Positions 1-58,189 of a stretch of DNA of 64,000 nucleotides are shown here, one piece after another. Position 1 is the stretch's first letter. Each line of letters opens with the position of its first letter. The DNA comes from Eremomyces bilateralis CBS 781.70 (Eukaryota). Location: NCBI GenBank assembly GCA_010015585.1, contig ML975159.1, one strand, 5' to 3'. The position numbers were made by a program, and so were the translations under genes. The notes beneath the pieces are model-generated. The model saw only the letters and a list, made by a program, of their open reading frames with translations. It ran no database searches and had not been told where the DNA came from.

Positions 1-1816
1 AGGGTGCTGTACACCTAGCTCCTTCTCCCTCCCTTCTAGCGCTCGCCGGTTCAGCTTCTCCGCCTCCGAGTACTTCCCCTGACTTTGCAGCACCAACGCC
101 AGGACGGTAACACTTATTAGTGTCAATTGGTCGTCCTGCCCATTTGCCCTCTCTCCAGCATTCAGCGCCTTTATTGCTATGTCGTGTGCTATCTTATACC
201 TCCCTGTCATCCACATATACCACGCAGAATTTGTAAGAATCTTAGCCCAGTCTTTCAAAAACTTCTCAGTCACCGGCTCTGCGCCATATAACGATTCAAC
301 ATGCGGAAGCAGTTGCTGGCACTTCGCCCAGTTCTTAAACTCGCCGTTGGGAAGCTCTCGTGCCATTAATTGTACGAATTGTTGCTTCCACCACTCCGCG
401 TCGCTAAACGACGATAGCCAGATCCGTGTGCAGAACTGCACCAGGGCGTGCATCTCACACACGTCAGTCTCGGTTGTCGCAGAAACAAGGGAGTAAGCTT
501 GTAAGGTATCAAAGTCTTCGTCGAATTCATTATTAGCCTCGTCTTCGCAGCCTGGTTTTGCCACTGTCCTACTGACTGTCCTACTATGCCTTCGAAGTAT
601 AGACTCTGGAATTCCTTGGGGGTTAAAGAAGCTCATAAGCGATAGCAAGTCTGCAGCAGAAGGCCGTTCTTTACGGATACGCTCAAACGATATCTGCCAC
701 GTCGTTACCACCGAGTTAGATGCACTATCATCCCTACGGATATCGTCTATATCCCAATTTAGGAGATTTTCTCTCTTGTTATTGTTTCTTCGAAACTCGT
801 CGAGGTACTTAGAGATCGTCATTCGAGCTCGCCGGTTGATGTATGCAGCGGCCTGGGTGATTGCAAGAGGGATGTAGTCGAGAGCACGCAGCAGATCAAT
901 TGTGTCGTCGGTCAACGCGTCCTGCAGTAGCTTGTTTCGGAGGAGCTGTAGGCCTTGGGCCTCGTCCATTGCCTGCACCTCCTTGATATTCTTATAGCCT
1001 CCTGCTAGTCCGGCTGCTGCATCCTTGTTCCTAGAAGTGATCAGGATCGATCCGTTGGGGCTCTGCGGGAGGTAAACCGCCAGCGATGCCGGCGGGCTTT
1101 CGGACGGCTTGTCTTGCTCGCCCTTGCGCGACGAGAAGGTCTCGACGTCGTCGACGTTGTCGAGGACCATTGTCCATTGGCCGTTTGTTTCCTCGCATAG
1201 CCAGTTACGGACTAGCCGTAAAATATCGGCCTTCGGATTCTCTCGCCCCGGAAGCTCTAACCTGTCTGCAATATCTCTGTACGCTTCTTCAAATCGGGCC
1301 TTAGTACTAGCGTATACCCAGAAGATGGACGTTTGCGGCGATGTATCGCGGATATCGTAGCAGTATCGGATAGCTATTTGCGACTTCCTACCTGCTATTA
1401 GCCTAATAGTGTAAAGAACAGATACTAACATACCCTACGCCGCCAAGGCCGACGAGCGCGGCGCGAGCGCCCGGTCTTGCGCAGTTGTCGTGGATCCACG
1501 CTAGAATGTCCGGCCGGTCGACGAAGTCAGGGTCTGGTGCGAACGGGACGGTGGAGAAAGGGGTGCGTTTTCGGCTCGGTCCGTCTGTGCGCTGGTTTAA
1601 GCATTGATATTTGATATTTGATAATAGATATTGGGTGGTCATGAATCCTATGGTGTGCTCACTTGAAATAATGAAGTTCGTCGTCCCGCCAGCCGCAGTG
1701 GTCGTCCCGGCAATGACGGTGTCACCCTGAATGCCCCCAGTGAAGTCGCTCGGTTGTTGCATGCTTTGACTCGGATAACTCAGATGCGAGGCAGGCGAGG
1801 TGTTTCTTGTGGACAT
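1..1816 (-). CDS. NLR-like STAND protein (short N-terminal putative amyloid motif + NB-ARC + TPR); 3' end runs off the window
   Basis: ATG 1816; introns 1662-1585 and about 1433-1388. Spliced P-loop GLGGVG|KSQ, Walker B MVLDNVDD, ILITSRN, YIPLAITQAAAYI, EMHALVQ, then TPR unit QGKYSEAEKLNRRALEGREKELGVQHP at the window edge. No stops seen in the last exon. Confidence 0.9.
601..1474. repeat. Inverted repeat arm 1 (partner 3680-4553)
   Basis: Reverse complement aligns without gaps to 3680-4553; about 19 mismatches by manual count; P-loop intron identical. Confidence 0.95.
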
Positions 1817-2195
1817 CTATTCGCACTCAAAGTAGCAGCTAAGGAGTGACCAGACCCCCGCAGTATGGCGCCTCGCCGTTATATAAGTCCAGTTTTCGGA
1901 GCTTGTCAAAGTTGAGGCTGTGACGGAATATTATCGAGCCGATACCAGTCGTTACAGCGCTCTCCAATCGAGTTTATGTGGTCCATGCATGCAGGATGAA
2001 GCCACTCTGCCACTGGAGTCTGGAGACCACTGACCACGCGCGAGTGGAAGACCCCGCATGCTATGGGGGCGGAGTTGACTTCGTCGAAAATAGCCTCTTA
2101 TGGAGAGCATGTTGGCGTCTTGTCCTCTACCTTCTTTCCAGCCCAGCAATTTACGAAGATACAAGCTGTCTCAACCAGTTTCATTCAATATATGT
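1817..2195. promoter_or_regulatory. Putative shared divergent promoter of the two NLRs
   Basis: About 380 bp between divergent ATGs; TATA-like ttatataag at about 1879-1887. Positional inference only. Confidence 0.45.
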
Positions 2196-5100
2196 ATGGC
2201 GTTCTGGAAGCTGTCGAAGGGCAAAGGAGGTGCTCAGACGGCCCTTGCCGAGCCCCCAACAGATGAGCTATTCTCAACGGTTGGAGATTATGGCCTTCAA
2301 ACGCTATCCGAGAGCGTGGATGACATTATCGAGTAAGCGATCTAGCATACCTCATTAACTCCGCCAACCAGTAAAATCAGCATCGTTTTCGTCCACGGTT
2401 TAACCGGCAATCGCGAATCGACTTGGACCGACAGGACTGGCAACGTGTTCTGGCCAAAAGATCTACTCGCAAAAGATCTCCCAAAGGCGCGAGTCATCAC
2501 GTTTGGCTACGATGCCGATATCGTTCGAGGATTGAGCACGGCCGGAAACAGTACACTCAGAGACCACGGGAAAGCTTTGGCTGAGGACCTGGCTATGCGG
2601 AGGAAGAAGACAGATTCTGTAAGACTTGTTGCGGCGCAATTTAAACCAAGAGCTCTAGCGACGCAAGAGTGTCGTCCCGGCGCACATACCGGGCATTTAC
2701 GGTCTTTGCTGTGATGCACGTCAAAAGAGCCGCAAAGAGCTGTCGCCGAAGTAGCCGACATATATTGTTGGAAGGCCGTTAGCAAACGCTGACTCAAGTA
2801 ACAGAACCTTCGTCCTCTGATCTTCGTTGCGCATAGCCTTGGTGGATTGGTTGCTGAGCAGGCGAGTGATCCTCCAATATATTTACCAGCTACCAGTCCA
2901 CTAATACCCCAGTGCAGGCACTGCTTGTCTCTCGCGGCTCGGCCCAGCAGCATGTTAAGGACTTGCTTGAAAGCACCGTGGCGATTGCGTTCATGGGTAC
3001 TCCACACCTCGGATCGAATATTGCAAATTGGGGACATCCAATCTCGAAACTTTCAAACCTGCTGCGCAAAACCAACTCCAAGATTGTAGGAGTATTACAG
3101 CCGGGCTCTGAAATGCTCGCCACGGTCCAACAAGAGTTTCATATCATGCTTGACGACCGAGGTAGAAACGACAACAAACATATTAACATCTTTTGTTTTT
3201 ATGAAGAAGTCGGATACCCTGGGCTCGGCGAGGCATGCAATTCCTCTAATATCCTCTATAGCCGAATTCTAGTGCTAAGCTCTTACAGATAGTACCGAAG
3301 CAATCAGCGATCCTTACGGCGTATCCAAACATTGGCATTCATGCAACCCACACAGGGATGACAAAGTTCAAGACTTCCGAGGACGCCGGCTATGTGCGAG
3401 TACATGATCGGCTTTGGCTCTGGTATAATATTGTTGAAAAGAGCGTGTGTCCGGTCCCGCGCCCGAAGACCAGGATGCAACAAACGAGCAACTTCAACTT
3501 CGGAGTCCCGTCAAGACAAGGTAGATGCTCTCTCGGAACGTAGCTAACCCGTGGCTAACACCAGTGCAGAGGGGGCAAGCCGAGAACGGAAGCCCTTCTC
3601 CACCGTCCCGTTCGCACCAGACCCTGACTTCGTCGACCGGCCCGATATTCTAACGTGGATCTGCGACAAGTGTGCAGGGCCGGGCGCTCGCGCCGCGCTC
3701 GTCGGCCTTGGCGGCGTAGGGTATGTTAGTATCTGTTCTTTACACTATTAGGCTAATAGCAGGTAGGAAGTCGCAAATAGCTATCCGATACTGCTACGAT
3801 ATCCGCGATACATCGCCGCAAACGTCCATCTTCTGGGTATACGCTAGCACCAAGGCCCGATTTGAAGAAGCGTACAGAGACATTGCAGACAGGTTAAAGC
3901 TTCCGGGGCGAGAGAATCCGAAGGCCGATATTTTACGGCTAGTCCGTAACTGGCTATGCGAGGAAACAAACGGCCAATGGACAATGATCCTCGACAACGT
4001 CGACGACGTCGAGACCTTCTCGTCGCGCAAGGGCGAGCAAGACAAGCCGTCCGAAAGCCCGCCGGCATCGCTGGCGGTTTACCTCCCGCAGAGCCCCAAC
4101 GGATCGATCCTGATCACTTCTAGGAACAAGGATGCAGCAGCCGGACTAGCAGGAGGCTATAAGAATATCAAGGAGGTGCAGGCAATGGACGAGGCCCAAG
4201 GCCTACAGCTCCTCCGGAACAAGCTACTGCAGGACGCGTTGACCGACGACACAATTGATCTGCTGCGTGCTCTCGACTACATCCCTCTTGCAATCACCCA
4301 GGCCGCTGCATACATCAACCGGCAAGCTCGAATGACGATCCCTAAGTACCTCGACGAGTTTCGAAGAAACAACAATAAGAGGGAAAATCTCCTAAATTGG
4401 GATACAGACGATATCCGTAGGGACGATAGTACATCCAACTCGGTGGTAACGACGTGGCAGATATCGTTTGAGCGTATTCGTAAAGAACGGCCTTCTGCTG
4501 CAGACTTGTTATCGCTTATGAGCTTCTTTAACCCCCAAGGGATTCCAGAGTCGATACTTCATAAGCATAGTAGGAACGGGGCAGAATTAAACGGCGAAGG
4601 CGAGGCTGACGCCGCCTTCGAAGAAGACTTTGATACCTTACGGACATATTCGCTTATAGCAGCGACAGCCGAGACCGATATCTATGAGATGCACGCGCTA
4701 GTGCAATTCTGCACGCAGGTCTGGCTGTCGTCGTTTAGCGAGGCGGGGATATGGAAGCAAAGGTTTATAGGGCTGATGGCACAGGAGTTTCCAACTGGGC
4801 AATTCGAGAACTGGGGGAGGTGCCAGCAGTTACTTCCGCATATCGAATCCCTATACGACAAAGAGCCGGCGACTGACGAGTCCTTGAAGGACTGGGCTCA
4901 GATTCTTACAAATGCTGCATGGTACATGTCGATGATAGGGGGGTATAAGAGAGGACAAGACATAGCAGCAAAGGCGCTTAAGGCTAGAGAAAGGATATGT
5001 GGACAGGAAGACCAGTTAACACTAATAAGTGTTACCGTCCTAGCATCAGTGATCACAAGCCAGGGGAAGTACTCGGAGGCAGAAAAGCTGAACCGACGAG

Positions 5101-6236
5101 CGCTAGAAGGGTACGAGAAGGGGCTAGGTGTACAGCACCCAGATACGCTGACGAGCGTGGACAACCTGGCGGGCGTACTGAAATATCAGGGGAAGTACTC
5201 GGAGGCGGAGAAGCTGAACCGGCGAGCGCTAGAAGGGAGGGAGAAGGAGCTAGGTGTACAGCACCCNNNNNNNNNNNNNNNNNNNNNNNNNNNNNNNNNN
5301 NNNNNNNNNNNNNNNNNNNNNNNNNNNNNNNNNNNNNNNNNNNNNNNNNNNNNNNNNNNNNNNNNNNNNNNNNNNNNNNNNNNNNNNNNNNNNNNNNNNN
5401 NNNNNNNNNNNNNNNNNNNNNNNNNNNNNNNNNNNNNNNNNNNNNNNNNNNNNNNNNNNNNNNNNNNNNNNNNNNNNNNNNNNNNNNNNNNNNNNNNNNN
5501 NNNNNNNNNNNNNNNNNNNNNNNNNNNNNNNNNNNNNNNNNNNNNNNNNNNNNNNNNNNNNNNNNNNNNNNNNNNNNNNNNNNNNNNNNNNNNNNNNNNN
5601 NNNNNNNNNNNNNNNNNNNNNNNNNNNNNNNNNNNNNNNNNNNNNNNNNNNNNNNNNNNNNNNNNNNNNNNNNNNNNNNNNNNNNNNNNNNNNNNNNNNN
5701 NNNNNNNNNNNNNNNNNNNNNNNNNNNNNNNNNNNNNNNNNNNNNNNNNNNNNNNNNNNNNNNNNNNNNNNNNNNNNNNNNNNNNNNNNNNNNNNNNNNN
5801 NNNNNNNNNNGAGAAGCTGAACCGGCGAGCGCTCGAAGAGAGGGAAAAGGAGCTTGGAATAGATCATCCTGATACACTAACTTCCGTCTACTGCCTTGCC
5901 TATCTTTTACACAAGCGCAGGCGATATAGGGAGGCGTCCGAGCTCTACCAGAGAGCATCCAATGGCTACAAGCAGAAGCTCGGTTCCCAGCACCCGAAAA
6001 CTATTGCGTGTCTTAATTATTTTACAGCTATGCAACAGGAGGCAGGGGAGGAAAGACAAGGACTGAGCAGGACATCAGTTGATAATGATAAAGAGGAGCT
6101 TAGAGAGATACCCACCGATGGTGCTAGTATTCTGCATGGCAGTGAGGCTATGCCTGAGCAAACCAGCAGCTTGAAGAGCAAAAATGACTCATTTTACACG
6201 CACTTGAAAACGAGGATGCGTAGAAAAGATCTATAG
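2196..6236 (+). CDS. NLR with N-terminal SesB-like alpha/beta hydrolase + NB-ARC + TPR repeats (all-in-one architecture)
   Basis: Spliced: IVFVHGLTGN..TW, FWPKDLL, RVITFGYDA, LIFVAHSLGG (nucleophile elbow), FMGTPHLGS, CFYEE, HATHTGMTKF. A phase-1 intron (3521-3569) joins in frame to EGASRERKPFSTVPF, followed by GLGGVG|KSQ, ILDNVDD, EMHALVQ and TPRs. Introns 2333-2380, 2619-2803, 2862-2917, 3233-3288, 3521-3569, 3721-3766. N-gap 5267-5810. Confidence 0.88.
3680..4553. repeat. Inverted repeat arm 2 (partner 601-1474)
   Basis: Same alignment as arm 1. Confidence 0.95.
5020..5990 (+). repeat. Highly conserved 126-bp (42-aa) TPR tandem array, partly in an assembly gap
   Basis: Units QGKYSEAEKLNRRALEGxEKxLGVQHPDTLTSV at a 126-bp period; gap 5267-5810 lies inside the array. 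Confidence 0.9.
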
Positions 6237-40268: not shown

Positions 40269-42500
40269 ATGGCAGGCAGACGAGTCCTCGACGTCTCCAA
40301 GCTCGTCTCCGCGACCCGACACATCGCGAAAGCTCACCTCGACCTCCGGAGTCGCCAATATGACGTATTCGCAAAGACATCCACCCTCGCCAAGGCCGCG
40401 AAGAACCAGACGGATCGAGTCACTGTGACTCTCAGTGCCGCCATCGCGATCGCACAGCGACTGGCAGAAGAGCCAATCAACAGCGGGACAACGGGTCCGC
40501 AGACACACGGGACGGATGGAAGTGCGAGTCCGCGAGGGCAGGCTTCGACAGGCGAGCGACCGAAAGATGCCTCGGGGATAAATCAAGACCATCATTACCA
40601 GCCGTCGGAGAAGAATGCAGCGTTCGAACCGGCACCGATTTCGGATCTCAAGCCGTCGCAGGAACAGGCTGGTAGACATGCACTTCCAGACGGGACAATT
40701 CCGTCAGAAGGGTTGGATGCAAGGGAAGAGACGGCAGGATATGACACGTATGGTCGAATTCCAGCTACAGAGACTGCAAAATCTCCACTGGAGGACCAAC
40801 GGACCAAGGTGGTCATACCGCAACGAAGTTCTGCTGTACAAAGATCGGAGGATGGGTCTATCAACGCCGACACATTCGGTACCGCGAGTGCAGATACGCA
40901 GAAAGCTGTGCTGGAGGATACTGCAGCTGAAGAGATACCAGAAGGCATCGACATCAATGTCTTCCGTACGACGCGAGGAAAGACGCTCCTTGGTTCCTCG
41001 AAACCATCTCAAGAACCGAAATCTACAGCCACGCAAATAGACGCAGCACCCGATGACATTCAGCAGCTCGCCAAAGCTATCGCGGAGGACCCCATCGCGG
41101 AGGACCCCATCACCCAACCCTCCACCACCCCCCAACCANNNNNNNNNNNNNNNNNNNNNNNNNNNNNNNNNNNNNNNNNNNNNNNNNNNNNNNNNNNNNN
41201 NNNNNNNNNNNNNNNNNNNNNNNNNNNNNNNNNNNNNNNNNNNNNNNNNNNNNNNNNNNNNNNNNNNNNNNNNNNNNNNNNNNNNNNNNNNNNNNNNNNN
41301 NNNNNNNNNNNNNNNNNNNNNNNCAACATGACCCGCCTCGTCGCCAAGCTCTCCCGCATGCGCGGCGCCGCCCTCAAGCTCGGCCAGATGATCAGCTTCC
41401 AAGACCTCAAGCTCCTCCCCGGCCCCATCCAGGACGTCATGCAGCGCGTCCAGGACAGCGCCGACTACATGCCTGCGCGCCAGCGCGACCGCGTGCTCGC
41501 CACCAGCCTCGGCGCCGACTGGCGCGACGCGTTCGCGGAGTTCGACGAGGTGCCCATCGCCGCCGCGTCGATCGGCCAGGTGCACCGGGCGACGCTGCGC
41601 ACCGGGGAGACGGTCGCGGTGAAGGTGCAGTACCCCGGGGTAGCGACATCGATCGACTCGGACCTGAACAACCTCTCGCTTCTGCTCACCGCATCGCGCC
41701 TGCTGCCGCGCGGGATGTATCTCGAGAAGACCATCGCGAACGCGCGGACGGAGCTGGCGTGGGAATGCGACTACGTGCGGGAGGCGGAGTGCGGGACTCG
41801 CTTTCGAGAACTACTCGCCGACGACGACGCGTTCACCGTCCCTCAGGTCTTCCCCTCCGCGTCCGGAAGAGAAGTCCTCACCGCCGAACTCATGCACGGC
41901 ACCGCGGTCACAAAAATTCCCGACTTATCCCAGGACGAACGCGACTGGATTGGCACCCATCTCCTCCGCCTCTGCCTCCGCGAGATCACTGAGTTCCGCT
42001 ACATGCAAACTGACCCCAACTGGACCAACTTCCTCTACAACCGCGCCACGCACAAGCTCGAGCTCCTCGACTTTGGCGCCACGCGCGCGTATCCGCTAGA
42101 ATTCATCGGGCCGTATGTCGGCATCCTCCGCGCCGCCGCCGCCGACGACCGCGCCACCATCCAATCCCTCTCCGTACAGCTTGGTTACCTCACGGGGTCC
42201 GAGAGCGCGGCGATGGTAGACGCGCACGCCGACTCGGTGCTGGCACTGGCAGAGCCGTTCGGTGCGCAGGCGGACGCGGTGTACGATTTCCAGGACCAGA
42301 CGATCACAGAGCGGGTGCGGGGGCTGATTCCGACGATGTTGAAGGAGCGGTTGGCGCCGCCGCCGGAGGAGACGTATAGTCTGCATCGGAAATTGAGTGG
42401 GGCGTTTTTGTTGTGTGCGAGATTGGGGAGTCGGGTTAGGTGTAGGGAGTTGTTTGAGGGGGCGGTGGAGAGGTTTGAGGGGAGGAAAGGGGAGGTGTAA
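40269..42500 (+). CDS. COQ8: Atypical kinase Coq8/ABC1 (N-gap 41139-41323)
   Basis: LSRMRGAALKLGQ, PIAAASIGQVH, VAVKVQYPGV, MQTDPNWTNF, LLDFGATR, PPPEETYSLHRKLSGAFLLC. Confidence 0.95.
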   Translation: MAGRRVLDVSKLVSATRHIAKAHLDLRSRQYDVFAKTSTLAKAAKNQTDRVTVTLSAAIAIAQRLAEEPINSGTTGPQTHGTDGSASPRGQASTGERPKDASGINQDHHYQPSEKNAAFEPAPISDLKPSQEQAGRHALPDGTIPSEGLDAREETAGYDTYGRIPATETAKSPLEDQRTKVVIPQRSSAVQRSEDGSINADTFGTASADTQKAVLEDTAAEEIPEGIDINVFRTTRGKTLLGSSKPSQEPKSTATQIDAAPDDIQQLAKAIAEDPIAEDPITQPSTTPQPXXXXXXXXXXXXXXXXXXXXXXXXXXXXXXXXXXXXXXXXXXXXXXXXXXXXXXXXXXXXXXNMTRLVAKLSRMRGAALKLGQMISFQDLKLLPGPIQDVMQRVQDSADYMPARQRDRVLATSLGADWRDAFAEFDEVPIAAASIGQVHRATLRTGETVAVKVQYPGVATSIDSDLNNLSLLLTASRLLPRGMYLEKTIANARTELAWECDYVREAECGTRFRELLADDDAFTVPQVFPSASGREVLTAELMHGTAVTKIPDLSQDERDWIGTHLLRLCLREITEFRYMQTDPNWTNFLYNRATHKLELLDFGATRAYPLEFIGPYVGILRAAAADDRATIQSLSVQLGYLTGSESAAMVDAHADSVLALAEPFGAQADAVYDFQDQTITERVRGLIPTMLKERLAPPPEETYSLHRKLSGAFLLCARLGSRVRCRELFEGAVERFEGRKGEV

Positions 42501-56959: not shown

Positions 56960-58189
56960 GCGATTGAAGACGTACCTTATCTCCCGATTCTCGGATTTCT
57001 TTCAAGAGCGAGGCGCTATGGGGCTACTACAGCATGGACGACAAATTGGACTTTGTCTTCAATAGAAAACGGTCTACCCGGATCGCTAAGAATTTTGGCT
57101 TGACAAAGCGATACCACTACCATCTACGACCAAATGACCGCTTTTATTCAACACTCATGCCACTTCCCAAATTTTTCTTATTTTCGATATGAATAGGTAT
57201 TGTTCACTTCACTATTGTTTTCTAGAACTGCTTAATCGGGAAATCCTAACCACGCGACAACATCCTCGCCACTCGGGAATCCAGCTCTCGTCTCGGCTAT
57301 TCGTCGTCGTCAACCCCCAGACTTCCCCGCACCTACACCTCCCCCCACCCCGCCCCCGGCTATCCCAACTCACGCTTTGTCTCCCCTAACGGAATATGTC
57401 CGCTCCACGTCCGTCGTATTCTCACGGCTCCTAATGGAAAACTGCGCTTGTGAGCGCGTTCCACTGTCCCTCCACCGACTACTGCTACCCGTAAACTGCC
57501 AAGTTCGTATCTCCTCGCCTTAGGTCTGGCCAGTGTGAACTATCGAGCTTTGTCAAGGAACCGGACACTCTTGGCATTGGTGAGCTAACGTCGTCGTTAG
57601 ACTCCTTAACTCATTCCCGGCTCCAAACGGAGTATCAGACGGGACAACATGCCACTCATTGTTGTTCCGTTGAATCAAACCAAACGTCCTAGTTAGAACA
57701 CCCTGGTAGATTCTTATTCCCCCCCCCCCCCCCCCCCCCCNNNNNNNNNNAACTATGAATCAACTTCGCCAGTCGCCACCCTTATTCCCGCCAGATTAGA
57801 TGAGACTCAAGGCCACGCATATCCGCTCGACTCGTGATCATCCCCCGCGACCGACGTCAAGGTCGGAGCAACATCGCCCAGTTGCCCCTCCACACTGCGA
57901 ACTCCCGTCCCGCCGCCCACGCTCCTAGAATTTAGCGACCTCGTGGGAAATATGACCTGCATGCACCAACCTGTTCGCCTGCTTCGCCGCCCTCGCCGGT
58001 CTAGACCGTGACCAATCTCCATCCCTCCATTGTCACCGGCAAAATCTGGCCCCACTTCGGTGAGTTCGTTGGCACCGGCCCTTCTGGGGAAACCAACGAA
58101 TGTGGGGGTGATGGAGAAACTTGCTGATGGTCTCGAAACCTGCTCGTCAGCCGTGTGGGAATAGATGGGAATAGAAGGGAATAGGGGGG

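Follow-up and report, generated by a model that had tools for sequence, protein, structure and literature searches.

A core-deleted amyloid-motif scar at the junction of a probable SesB-NLR gene fusion in Eremomyces bilateralis

This work concerns a stretch of 64,000 nucleotides (the window) of contig ML975159.1 from the filamentous ascomycete Eremomyces bilateralis CBS 781.70 (assembly GCA_010015585.1). At the left end of the window, two divergently transcribed NOD-like receptor (NLR) genes were found, i.e., gene A on the minus strand and gene B on the plus strand. The element in question is a short segment of gene B, located between a SesB-like effector part and the NB-ARC part, where an amyloid-like motif appears to have lost its core. 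Receptors of this kind are found in two forms. In the two-gene form, the receptor signals to a separate executioner by amyloid templating, and in the all-in-one form receptor and executioner are a single protein.

The closest described systems are the following. Two-gene amyloid pairs are HET-S/NWD2, the sesA/sesB/het-eN sigma locus of Nectria haematococca, and HELLP/SBP/PNT1 with the PP motif (PMC3321046, PMC5485727). All-in-one and two-gene NLR forms alternate, interconverting "by gene fusion or fission" (PMC3321046). All-in-one NLRs composed of SesB, NOD, and repeats are exemplified by P. anserina NWD4, and SesB-like N-termini were found in 13-14% of ascomycete NLRs (PMC3321046, PMC9815663). 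Recent N-terminal swaps recur between NODs that are 80-99% identical (Dyrka 2014, PMC4986451). Motifs between the effector domain and the NOD were listed in five cases, i.e., four HeLo-like with sigma and one HeLo-like with PP (Wojciechowski 2022, PMC9815663).

The segment at 3475..3520 is, with good probability, the degenerate first exon of a motif-bearing NLR (NLR-B) that once lay downstream of a stand-alone sesB, and two deletions would have produced the fused gene. The parts of gene B are as follows.

2196-2332, 2372-2618, 2805-2861, 2918-3232, 3289-3520, 3570-3720, and 3767-6236, plus strand: exons of gene B
2196..3443, plus strand: SesB-like/DUF676 alpha/beta-hydrolase part with the AHSLGG serine motif; the portion in the fifth exon is 3289-3443
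3444..3474, plus strand: bridge of 31 nt, encoding (S)VCPVPRPKTR
3475..3520, plus strand: scar, probable former NLR first exon, with a start codon, MQQTSNF, and NFNFGVPSRQ, the two overlapping by NF
3521..3569, plus strand: intron after the scar, GTAGAT...CAG, 49 nt, phase 1
3570..6236, plus strand: NB-ARC/DUF7779/TPR part (exon 3570-3720, intron 3721-3766, exon 3767-6236)

The sequence-only reading of this DNA had claimed an internally deleted scar of the motif in the SesB-NB-ARC linker. This was borne out: the segment is what is left of an NLR-type N-terminal motif, and it lies in the linker of a frame that encodes SesB, NB-ARC, and TPR. Against the consensus of 55 outgroups, 23 codons were lost in frame. 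The missing part is the core of about 22-23 codons, and the scar keeps MQQTS.F and then NFNFG.PSRQ. In multiple alignment with MAFFT, gene B was collinear with the outgroup N-termini except for one gap of ~23 columns, which agrees with the proposed homology. From 3475, gene B reads MQQTSNFNFGVPSRQ up to the exon end and EGASRERKPFSTVPF after it, and an outgroup example, P0017, one of the NLRs matched by the N-terminal region of gene A, reads MQQTSEFNGPIEGHIVIPAPHNAGGTMNFNFGYQSRQDRQSRKREPFSTVPF. A short linker was not the state of the outgroups; the core was present in all 55 canonical outgroup NLR N-termini.

A hidden Markov model (HMM) of NLR N-termini was not significant on the scar alone (independent E-value 0.18) because the deletion breaks the local alignment. 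Hence, ungapped position-specific scoring matrices (PSSMs) of the flanks were used, built from the 55 outgroup N-termini with the window's own P0010 and P0091 left out. Pre-core MQQTSNF scored 19.5 bits and post-core NFNFGVPSRQ scored 29.9 bits, each as the sole best of 127,606 six-frame window positions. The combined score was 49.4, and the next best in the window was 25.2. A PSSM match near 48.2 kb, MDMGNNFHAVMPPSV, lies inside an RFX-type gene and was discarded as chance.

The first known partner of the scar is gene A, the features of which are given below together with the tract that both genes share.

1762(1816)-1663, 1584-1434, and 1387-1, minus strand: exons of gene A (NLR-A), which runs off the window
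1663..1762, minus strand: first exon of gene A with an intact amyloid-like motif, MQQPSDFTGGIQGDTVIAGTTTAAGGTTNFIIS; the annotated start is the upstream in-frame ATG at 1816
1585..1662, minus strand: first intron of gene A, GTGAGC...CAG, 78 nt, phase 1
1..1584, minus strand: NB-ARC/DUF7779/TPR part of gene A by Pfam (exon 1584-1434, intron 1433-1388, exon 1387-1)
3681..4340, no strand assigned: gene-conversion tract of B and A, partner 814-1473, from the identity profile in 60-nt bins; inverted repeats

The HMM of outgroup NLR N-termini matched the first exon region of gene A (1762-1541) at 8.8e-15. The 22-nt match reported earlier, 3475-3496 (plus) against 1741-1762 (minus), was reproduced at 20/22, with two mismatches at the scar. 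The 22-mer has two matches in the window, and none of 100 dinucleotide shuffles gave two. By local alignment of the ~500-nt upstream regions of both genes, a single segment was obtained (22/25 nt, 1765-1741 against 3472-3496, score 19); the mean over the shuffles was 11.4 (sd 1.5), and 1/300 reached 19.5. The DNA match alone is thus only moderately significant. The translations up to the exon end are MQQTSNFNFGVPSRQ at the scar and MQQPSDFTGGIQGDTVIAGTTTAAGGTTNFIIS in gene A. A phase-1 intron follows both segments, as had been noticed (3521-3569, 49 nt, and 1662-1585, 78 nt), and the two introns are homologous at their 3' ends only, in gene A from ~1602. In gene B, what follows the match, i.e., 24 nt of exon and the 5' part of the intron, is not homologous to gene A. 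The 78-nt intron of gene A is itself in frame and stop-free, and if it is read through, the frame stays open from 1816 to 1403.

The ACTTCA repeat around the core of gene A was also found as described, with copies at 1746-1741 and 1677-1672 and a spacing of 69 nt. The suggestion that the gene A copy shows the template of the deletion did not hold. Loss between the two ACTTCA copies in present gene A would give ...DF-IIS and GTGAGC, not ...NF-NFGVPSRQ and GTAGATGC, because gene A diverged after the core (NFIIS and a different 5' part of the intron). These two regions of gene A deviate from the rest of the family.

Genes A and B are old paralogues, ~80% identical, with gene conversion or concerted evolution of the NB-ARC region. 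In gene B coordinates and 60-nt bins, their identity was 80-85% at 3563-3680, ~99% at 3681-4340 (~660 nt), 93-97% at 4341-4520, and ~77% at 4576-5108. Such a profile is the mark of conversion between old paralogues. The scar was not copied directly from gene A, and the high NB-ARC identity gives no date for the fusion.

A better partner was found in the NLR of metagenome locus L004. The exon end and the whole intron of gene B (GACAAG, then GTAGATGC...GCTAAC...CAG) align with the corresponding stretch of this NLR, from the end of its first exon through its first intron, with a score of 31.1; 200 shuffles scored 10.4 +/- 1.5 and at most 16.8. The two introns share conserved donor, branch, and acceptor signals. 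The part of the scar after the 22-nt match is also homologous to the outgroup NLR N-termini. Because this part resembles the L004 NLR and the outgroups and not gene A, the parent was a canonical NLR first exon, and gene A is the diverged one. Judged by its sequence, the stretch 3475-3569 is truly the first exon and first intron of an NLR, minus the motif core.

The bridge (3444-3474) resembles neither the sesB tail nor the upstream region of gene A, and before the ATG the match to gene A extends over only 3 nt. The bridge was probably once the 5' leader of the captured NLR and has become part of the reading frame. Its origin as sesB tail DNA was considered and dropped, as only short by-eye matches were seen (AGGATGC, and 13/15 to L004). 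A 225-nt DNA contig of run X1, which may be the assembly's own data, covers 3401-3625 with no differences. Therefore, the junction, scar, and intron are contiguous and are not an artefact of scaffolding.

The effector half points in the same direction. The SesB part of gene B is 90.9% identical (279/307) to P0002 over residues 1-304, ending at ...VEKS (nt 3443), and then diverges. P0002, a motif-bearing stand-alone sesB, is assigned to a different contig of the same named genome. Nine proteins were found with exon 5, at 77-92% identity over its first 52 residues, and all of them are stand-alone DUF676 proteins or fragments. After ...LWLWYN.VEES, all nine continue with QDAWKEKKDAAKRQQQRLLQPAS... 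(the QDAWKEKK... tail), which is absent from gene B, and the collinearity with gene B stops after VE(E/K)S. Eight of them end in an NF-type motif, ...GPVFNGPISGRNVISGTQVTGGTTNFNFS or a close variant (...GGT.NFNFS-like), followed by a stop; the end of P0006 is divergent. The metagenome loci L001, L002, and L004 have the same sesB tail with the stop directly after NFNFS.

A second copy of the region, ~90% identical, was present in runs X1 and X3 over window 1697-3443 and comprised the NLR first exon, the intergenic region, and a sesB with a normal tail. Its contigs leave the window exactly at 3443 and go on as SQDSWKEKKDA, which are the P0002 residues at that place.

The same motif is found at the effector C-terminus and the NLR N-terminus in the relatives. 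The HMM of NLR N-termini matched the sesB tails of L001 (1.8e-10), L004 (3.3e-10), and L002 (6.3e-8), and it matched the adjacent NLR starts in L003, L004, and L001. In the window, the motif is kept only by gene A. A motif-bearing NLR adjoins sesB head-to-head, as in the window, in L003 and L004, and in tandem in L001. In Talaromyces amestolkiae, the sesB P0003 and the NLR P0038 have adjacent locus tags. In the syntenic two-gene locus L003, the sesB tail (3920-4320) loses its frame inside the motif (...SPITGHT and a stop), by pseudogenisation or by a sequencing error.

Fused SesB-NLRs are plentiful, and the closest were at most 62% identical among the 120 longer proteins listed with P0002. None of these 120 had the motif in its linker, and the matches seen in their ANK repeats or hydrolase domain were at chance level. 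No close fused relative of gene B was found by an exhaustive search of representatives. The direction claimed earlier, from two components to one gene, agrees with these results: the stand-alone relatives carry the tail, sesB adjoins a motif-NLR in L001, L003, and L004, and the fused forms are distant, and therefore the polarity is from two genes to one. What the sequence-only reading did not contain is a second loss, i.e., the effector's own C-terminal motif was lost separately, in the fusion deletion at 3443/3444.

The proteins P0002, P0003, P0008, and P0009 show 79-91% protein identity to 2196-3443 across species named from different fungal classes. Such identity is unusually high for an immune effector and may reflect horizontal spread.

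The preferred history, in which a first exon was captured and its core was lost, would have run as follows. The ancestor would have had a sesB/DUF676 lipase-like effector gene ending in the motif, followed in tandem by NLR-B beginning with the same motif. A fusion deletion would have extended from after ...VEKS of sesB (3443) to 31 nt before the NLR ATG, removing ~65 effector tail codons including the motif and the stop, together with the intergenic DNA, and joining effector, leader, and NLR in one frame. In another in-frame loss, which may have followed the fusion, as the sequence-only reading held, or preceded it, 22-23 core codons of the NLR motif would have disappeared, so that MQQTS-NF-NFG.PSRQ remained together with the original phase-1 intron. 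As the core is bracketed by xF(N) and NFNF, this loss probably went through short direct repeats of the ACTTCA(AC) kind. A role of microhomology is plausible, since in the canonical motif the core is preceded by xF-N... and followed by NF-NF.

The product would be a receptor of the all-in-one type, composed of SesB, NB-ARC, and TPR. When its NB-ARC oligomerises in response to a ligand, the lipase domains would be assembled directly and amyloid templating would be bypassed, and the scar would serve only as a linker. NLR-A, with its motif intact, could still signal in trans to a motif-bearing stand-alone sesB.

The gene models agree with the domain content of such a receptor. The spliced translation of gene A equals P0010 at 559/564 residues, and the five mismatches are the last residues at the window edge. 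The NLR part of gene B equals P0091 at 539/542 residues; P0091 begins with PFSTVPF. Both are recorded as hypothetical proteins of Eremomyces bilateralis CBS 781.70. Both genes matched DUF7779, TPR_10, and TPR_12 in Pfam, the content of NB-ARC-TPR fungal NLRs, and NB-ARC was matched on P0010 at 3.1e-5 (23.8 bits, cut-off 23.5). The SesB exons of gene B taken singly gave no Pfam match, and P0002 was used instead for this reason; it matched DUF676 at 4.7e-8 (33.2 bits, cut-off 20.3), so that the assignment to SesB/DUF676 effectors is by proxy. The sesB part as a whole is under purifying selection, with dN/dS (ratio of nonsynonymous to synonymous substitution) of 0.14-0.15 against L001 and L004.

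None of the listed runs is recorded as RNA. Run X3 behaves as RNA, because spliced joints are present in its contigs, and the intron positions of the SesB part of gene B agree with these joints. Two introns of the SesB part, at 2862-2917 and 3233-3288, are of the GC-AG type and 56 nt long; X3 contigs show spliced joints at both, but with second-copy letters, and over exons 4-5 all X3 depth carries second-copy letters. On the side of gene A, the RNA-like contigs end at 1663 and continue with letters resembling the start of exon 2. Runs X4 and X5 gave no contigs on the window.

Several points weigh against the proposed history and product, and most of them favor another explanation, i.e., a decaying locus where a tail-less sesB abuts a motif-less NLR, the common frame is accidental, and the scar is a sign of pseudogenisation, not of streamlining. 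In-frame and stop-free continuity over 31 nt has a chance of ~0.2 by a rough estimate. The public annotation of gene B is only the NLR model P0091, which is partial, and no database model covering the SesB half was found among the proteins with exon 5. The sesB branch of gene B has a derived dN/dS of ~0.21, about twice the ~0.09-0.10 on the L001 and L004 branches, which may point to relaxed constraint. Even a dead NB-ARC could still look intact owing to gene conversion from gene A. A fused mRNA and the splicing of 3521-3569 in gene B are what we infer from the continuous frame across the SesB-NLR junction and the conserved splice signals; no X3 contig lies on 3480-3559, and no read or contig was obtained that joins sesB exon 5 to exon 6. 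For the proposed tandem ancestor, L001, where the NLR is 28% identical, offers only an analogy.

Decay nevertheless seems unlikely. No stops or frameshifts occur across ~1,000 visible codons of gene B, and both deletions are in frame. The AHSLGG serine motif is intact, and so is the P-loop GLGGVGKS, which spans the second NLR intron. The intron after the scar has kept the signals that it shares with the L004 NLR. The 31 nt between the two parts leave no space for a terminator and a promoter.

A different origin of the scar, from the effector's own C-terminal tail (KRQQQRLLQPTS ... TNFNFS and stop) by an internal deletion and stop loss, is very improbable. MAFFT placed RMQQ and TSNFNF of gene B at the two ends of sesB tails, and by eye AACTTCAACTTC is identical to the last L003 sesB codons and L004 ACCAGAAGGCAACAA matches gene B ACCAGGATGCAACAA at 13/15. 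In the MAFFT alignment of DNA tails, NFNF of gene B was not sensibly placed, and that alignment left the two origins undecided; the NLR exon was chosen because the outgroup proteins and the L004 intron decide. The sesB tails stop after NFNFS, whereas gene B goes on with G.PSRQ and a phase-1 intron like NLR first exons, and the six post-core columns add ~12 bits. The intron is homologous to the NLR first intron, and QQ stands ~20 residues before the core in sesB tails, not 4. Moreover, collinearity with the second-copy contigs and with all homologues ends at 3443, 31 nt short of the ATG. Several coincidences are needed for an origin from the sesB tail, and one deletion is enough for the NLR exon.

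The chance is negligible that the short form is ancestral with the motif inserted into gene A, or that the 20/22 match is non-homologous: although 1/300 shuffles reached the DNA match score, the core stands in all 55 canonical outgroup N-termini, it is carried by the metagenome NLRs adjoining sesB, and the PSSM scores are unique in the window.

The motif itself has the pattern F.G.I.G..VI.GT.T.AGGT.NFNFG with a core of ~21 residues. No Pfam match was found on the motif part of the window (1434-1816) at E up to 0.01 or on the motif in P0002, P0008, P0010, P0014, and P0038 at E up to 1. None of the curated motif models matched it, i.e., the HET-s prion domain, Ses_B, and NACHT_sigma (PF17106). 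Its glycine and alternating hydrophobic pattern presumably resembles that of HET-s-related motifs. The sigma motif is described as a threefold repeat of submotifs A (GxGxQFN) and B (GGTQNINT) over ~40 residues (Daskalov 2012, PMC3321046). By eye, one GGT(T/M)NFNF element like submotif B was seen in the window motif, with no threefold repeat.

Scars of the same kind were searched elsewhere among 36 homologues with a long N-terminal extension. Four carry the full motif, and the other 32 are mostly HET- or PNP_UDP-headed. With the post-core matrix, three of these 32 core-less proteins exceeded the maximum of 470 null segments (0.6 bits), i.e., P0041 (HET-NB-ARC-TPR, 17.3 bits, ...KEINFNFGPSTTDGQQRK), P0104 (8.3 bits, ...AGGTTSLQFGYQPTQ), and P0103 (1.3 bits, marginal), all with gene models as predicted. 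These remnants sit just upstream of PFSTVPF. It is possible, as a tentative idea, that motif-bearing NLRs serve as docking sites for effector capture, where a gene for an effector located upstream becomes joined to the leader and first exon of the NLR and the redundant and cross-talk-prone relay is then eroded by repeat-mediated in-frame deletions and scars are general. This idea draws support from the 2-3 of 32 differently headed relatives that keep core-less post-core remnants. If it is true, scars would be a general and datable signature of transitions from two genes to one in fungal immunity.

Around the NLR pair, the window holds genes of other functions. At 9000-64000, Sec15, an RRM protein, a cyclin, AtuA, a CoA-transferase, chitin synthase, SARAF, an RFX factor, acetyl-CoA synthetase, and an MFS transporter were predicted. 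As these flanking genes are housekeeping, the pair adjoins core genes and no obvious NLR cluster. Three assembly gaps appear as runs of N, at 5267-5810, 41139-41323, and 57741-57750. The one at 5267-5810 falls within the TPR array of gene B and hides its repeat number.

In comparison with the two-gene amyloid pairs, where gene order and orientation vary between loci (PMC3321046), the effector's motif copy is gone in the window, and of the two NLR copies one retains only its flanks. The motif differs from the published sigma organisation and from the PP pattern. Like the all-in-one SesB NLRs, the frame of gene B encodes DUF676/SesB, then NB-ARC, and then TPR. Unlike gene B, the inspected SesB-NB-ARC-TPR proteins (P0347, P0360, and 0/120 listed) have short linkers with no trace of the motif. 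The SesB part of gene B is 91% identical to a stand-alone paralogue, compared with at most 62% to any fused protein found.

As in the N-terminal swaps, the NB-ARC regions of genes A and B are ~99% identical over 660 nt and the N-termini differ, i.e., motif and SesB. Unlike the reported swaps, the high NOD identity is here a conversion tract between older paralogues and so does not show that the swap is young, and the junction is readable by its leader, start codon, motif flanks, and intron. Like the cases in PMC9815663, the motif sequence is internal between effector and NOD, but those are motif hits, i.e., intact, and here the core is deleted. A full-text literature search, which included the accessible parts of PMC3321046, PMC4986451, PMC9815663, PMC5485727, PMC4518210, and PMC13449251, gave no description of a deleted-core scar or a readable fusion junction, and no paper was found in the literature search with the motif strings.

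The locus would keep the whole path of the transition, i.e., the effector cut before its tail, the leader read through, the internal start codon, the core-less flanks, and the original intron, and it provides one concrete case in which the polarity, from two genes to one, can be read. It suggests that linkers of all-in-one NLRs be scanned with motif-flank models. It also raises the question of whether the core was removed because it was useless in a fused gene or because it was harmful.

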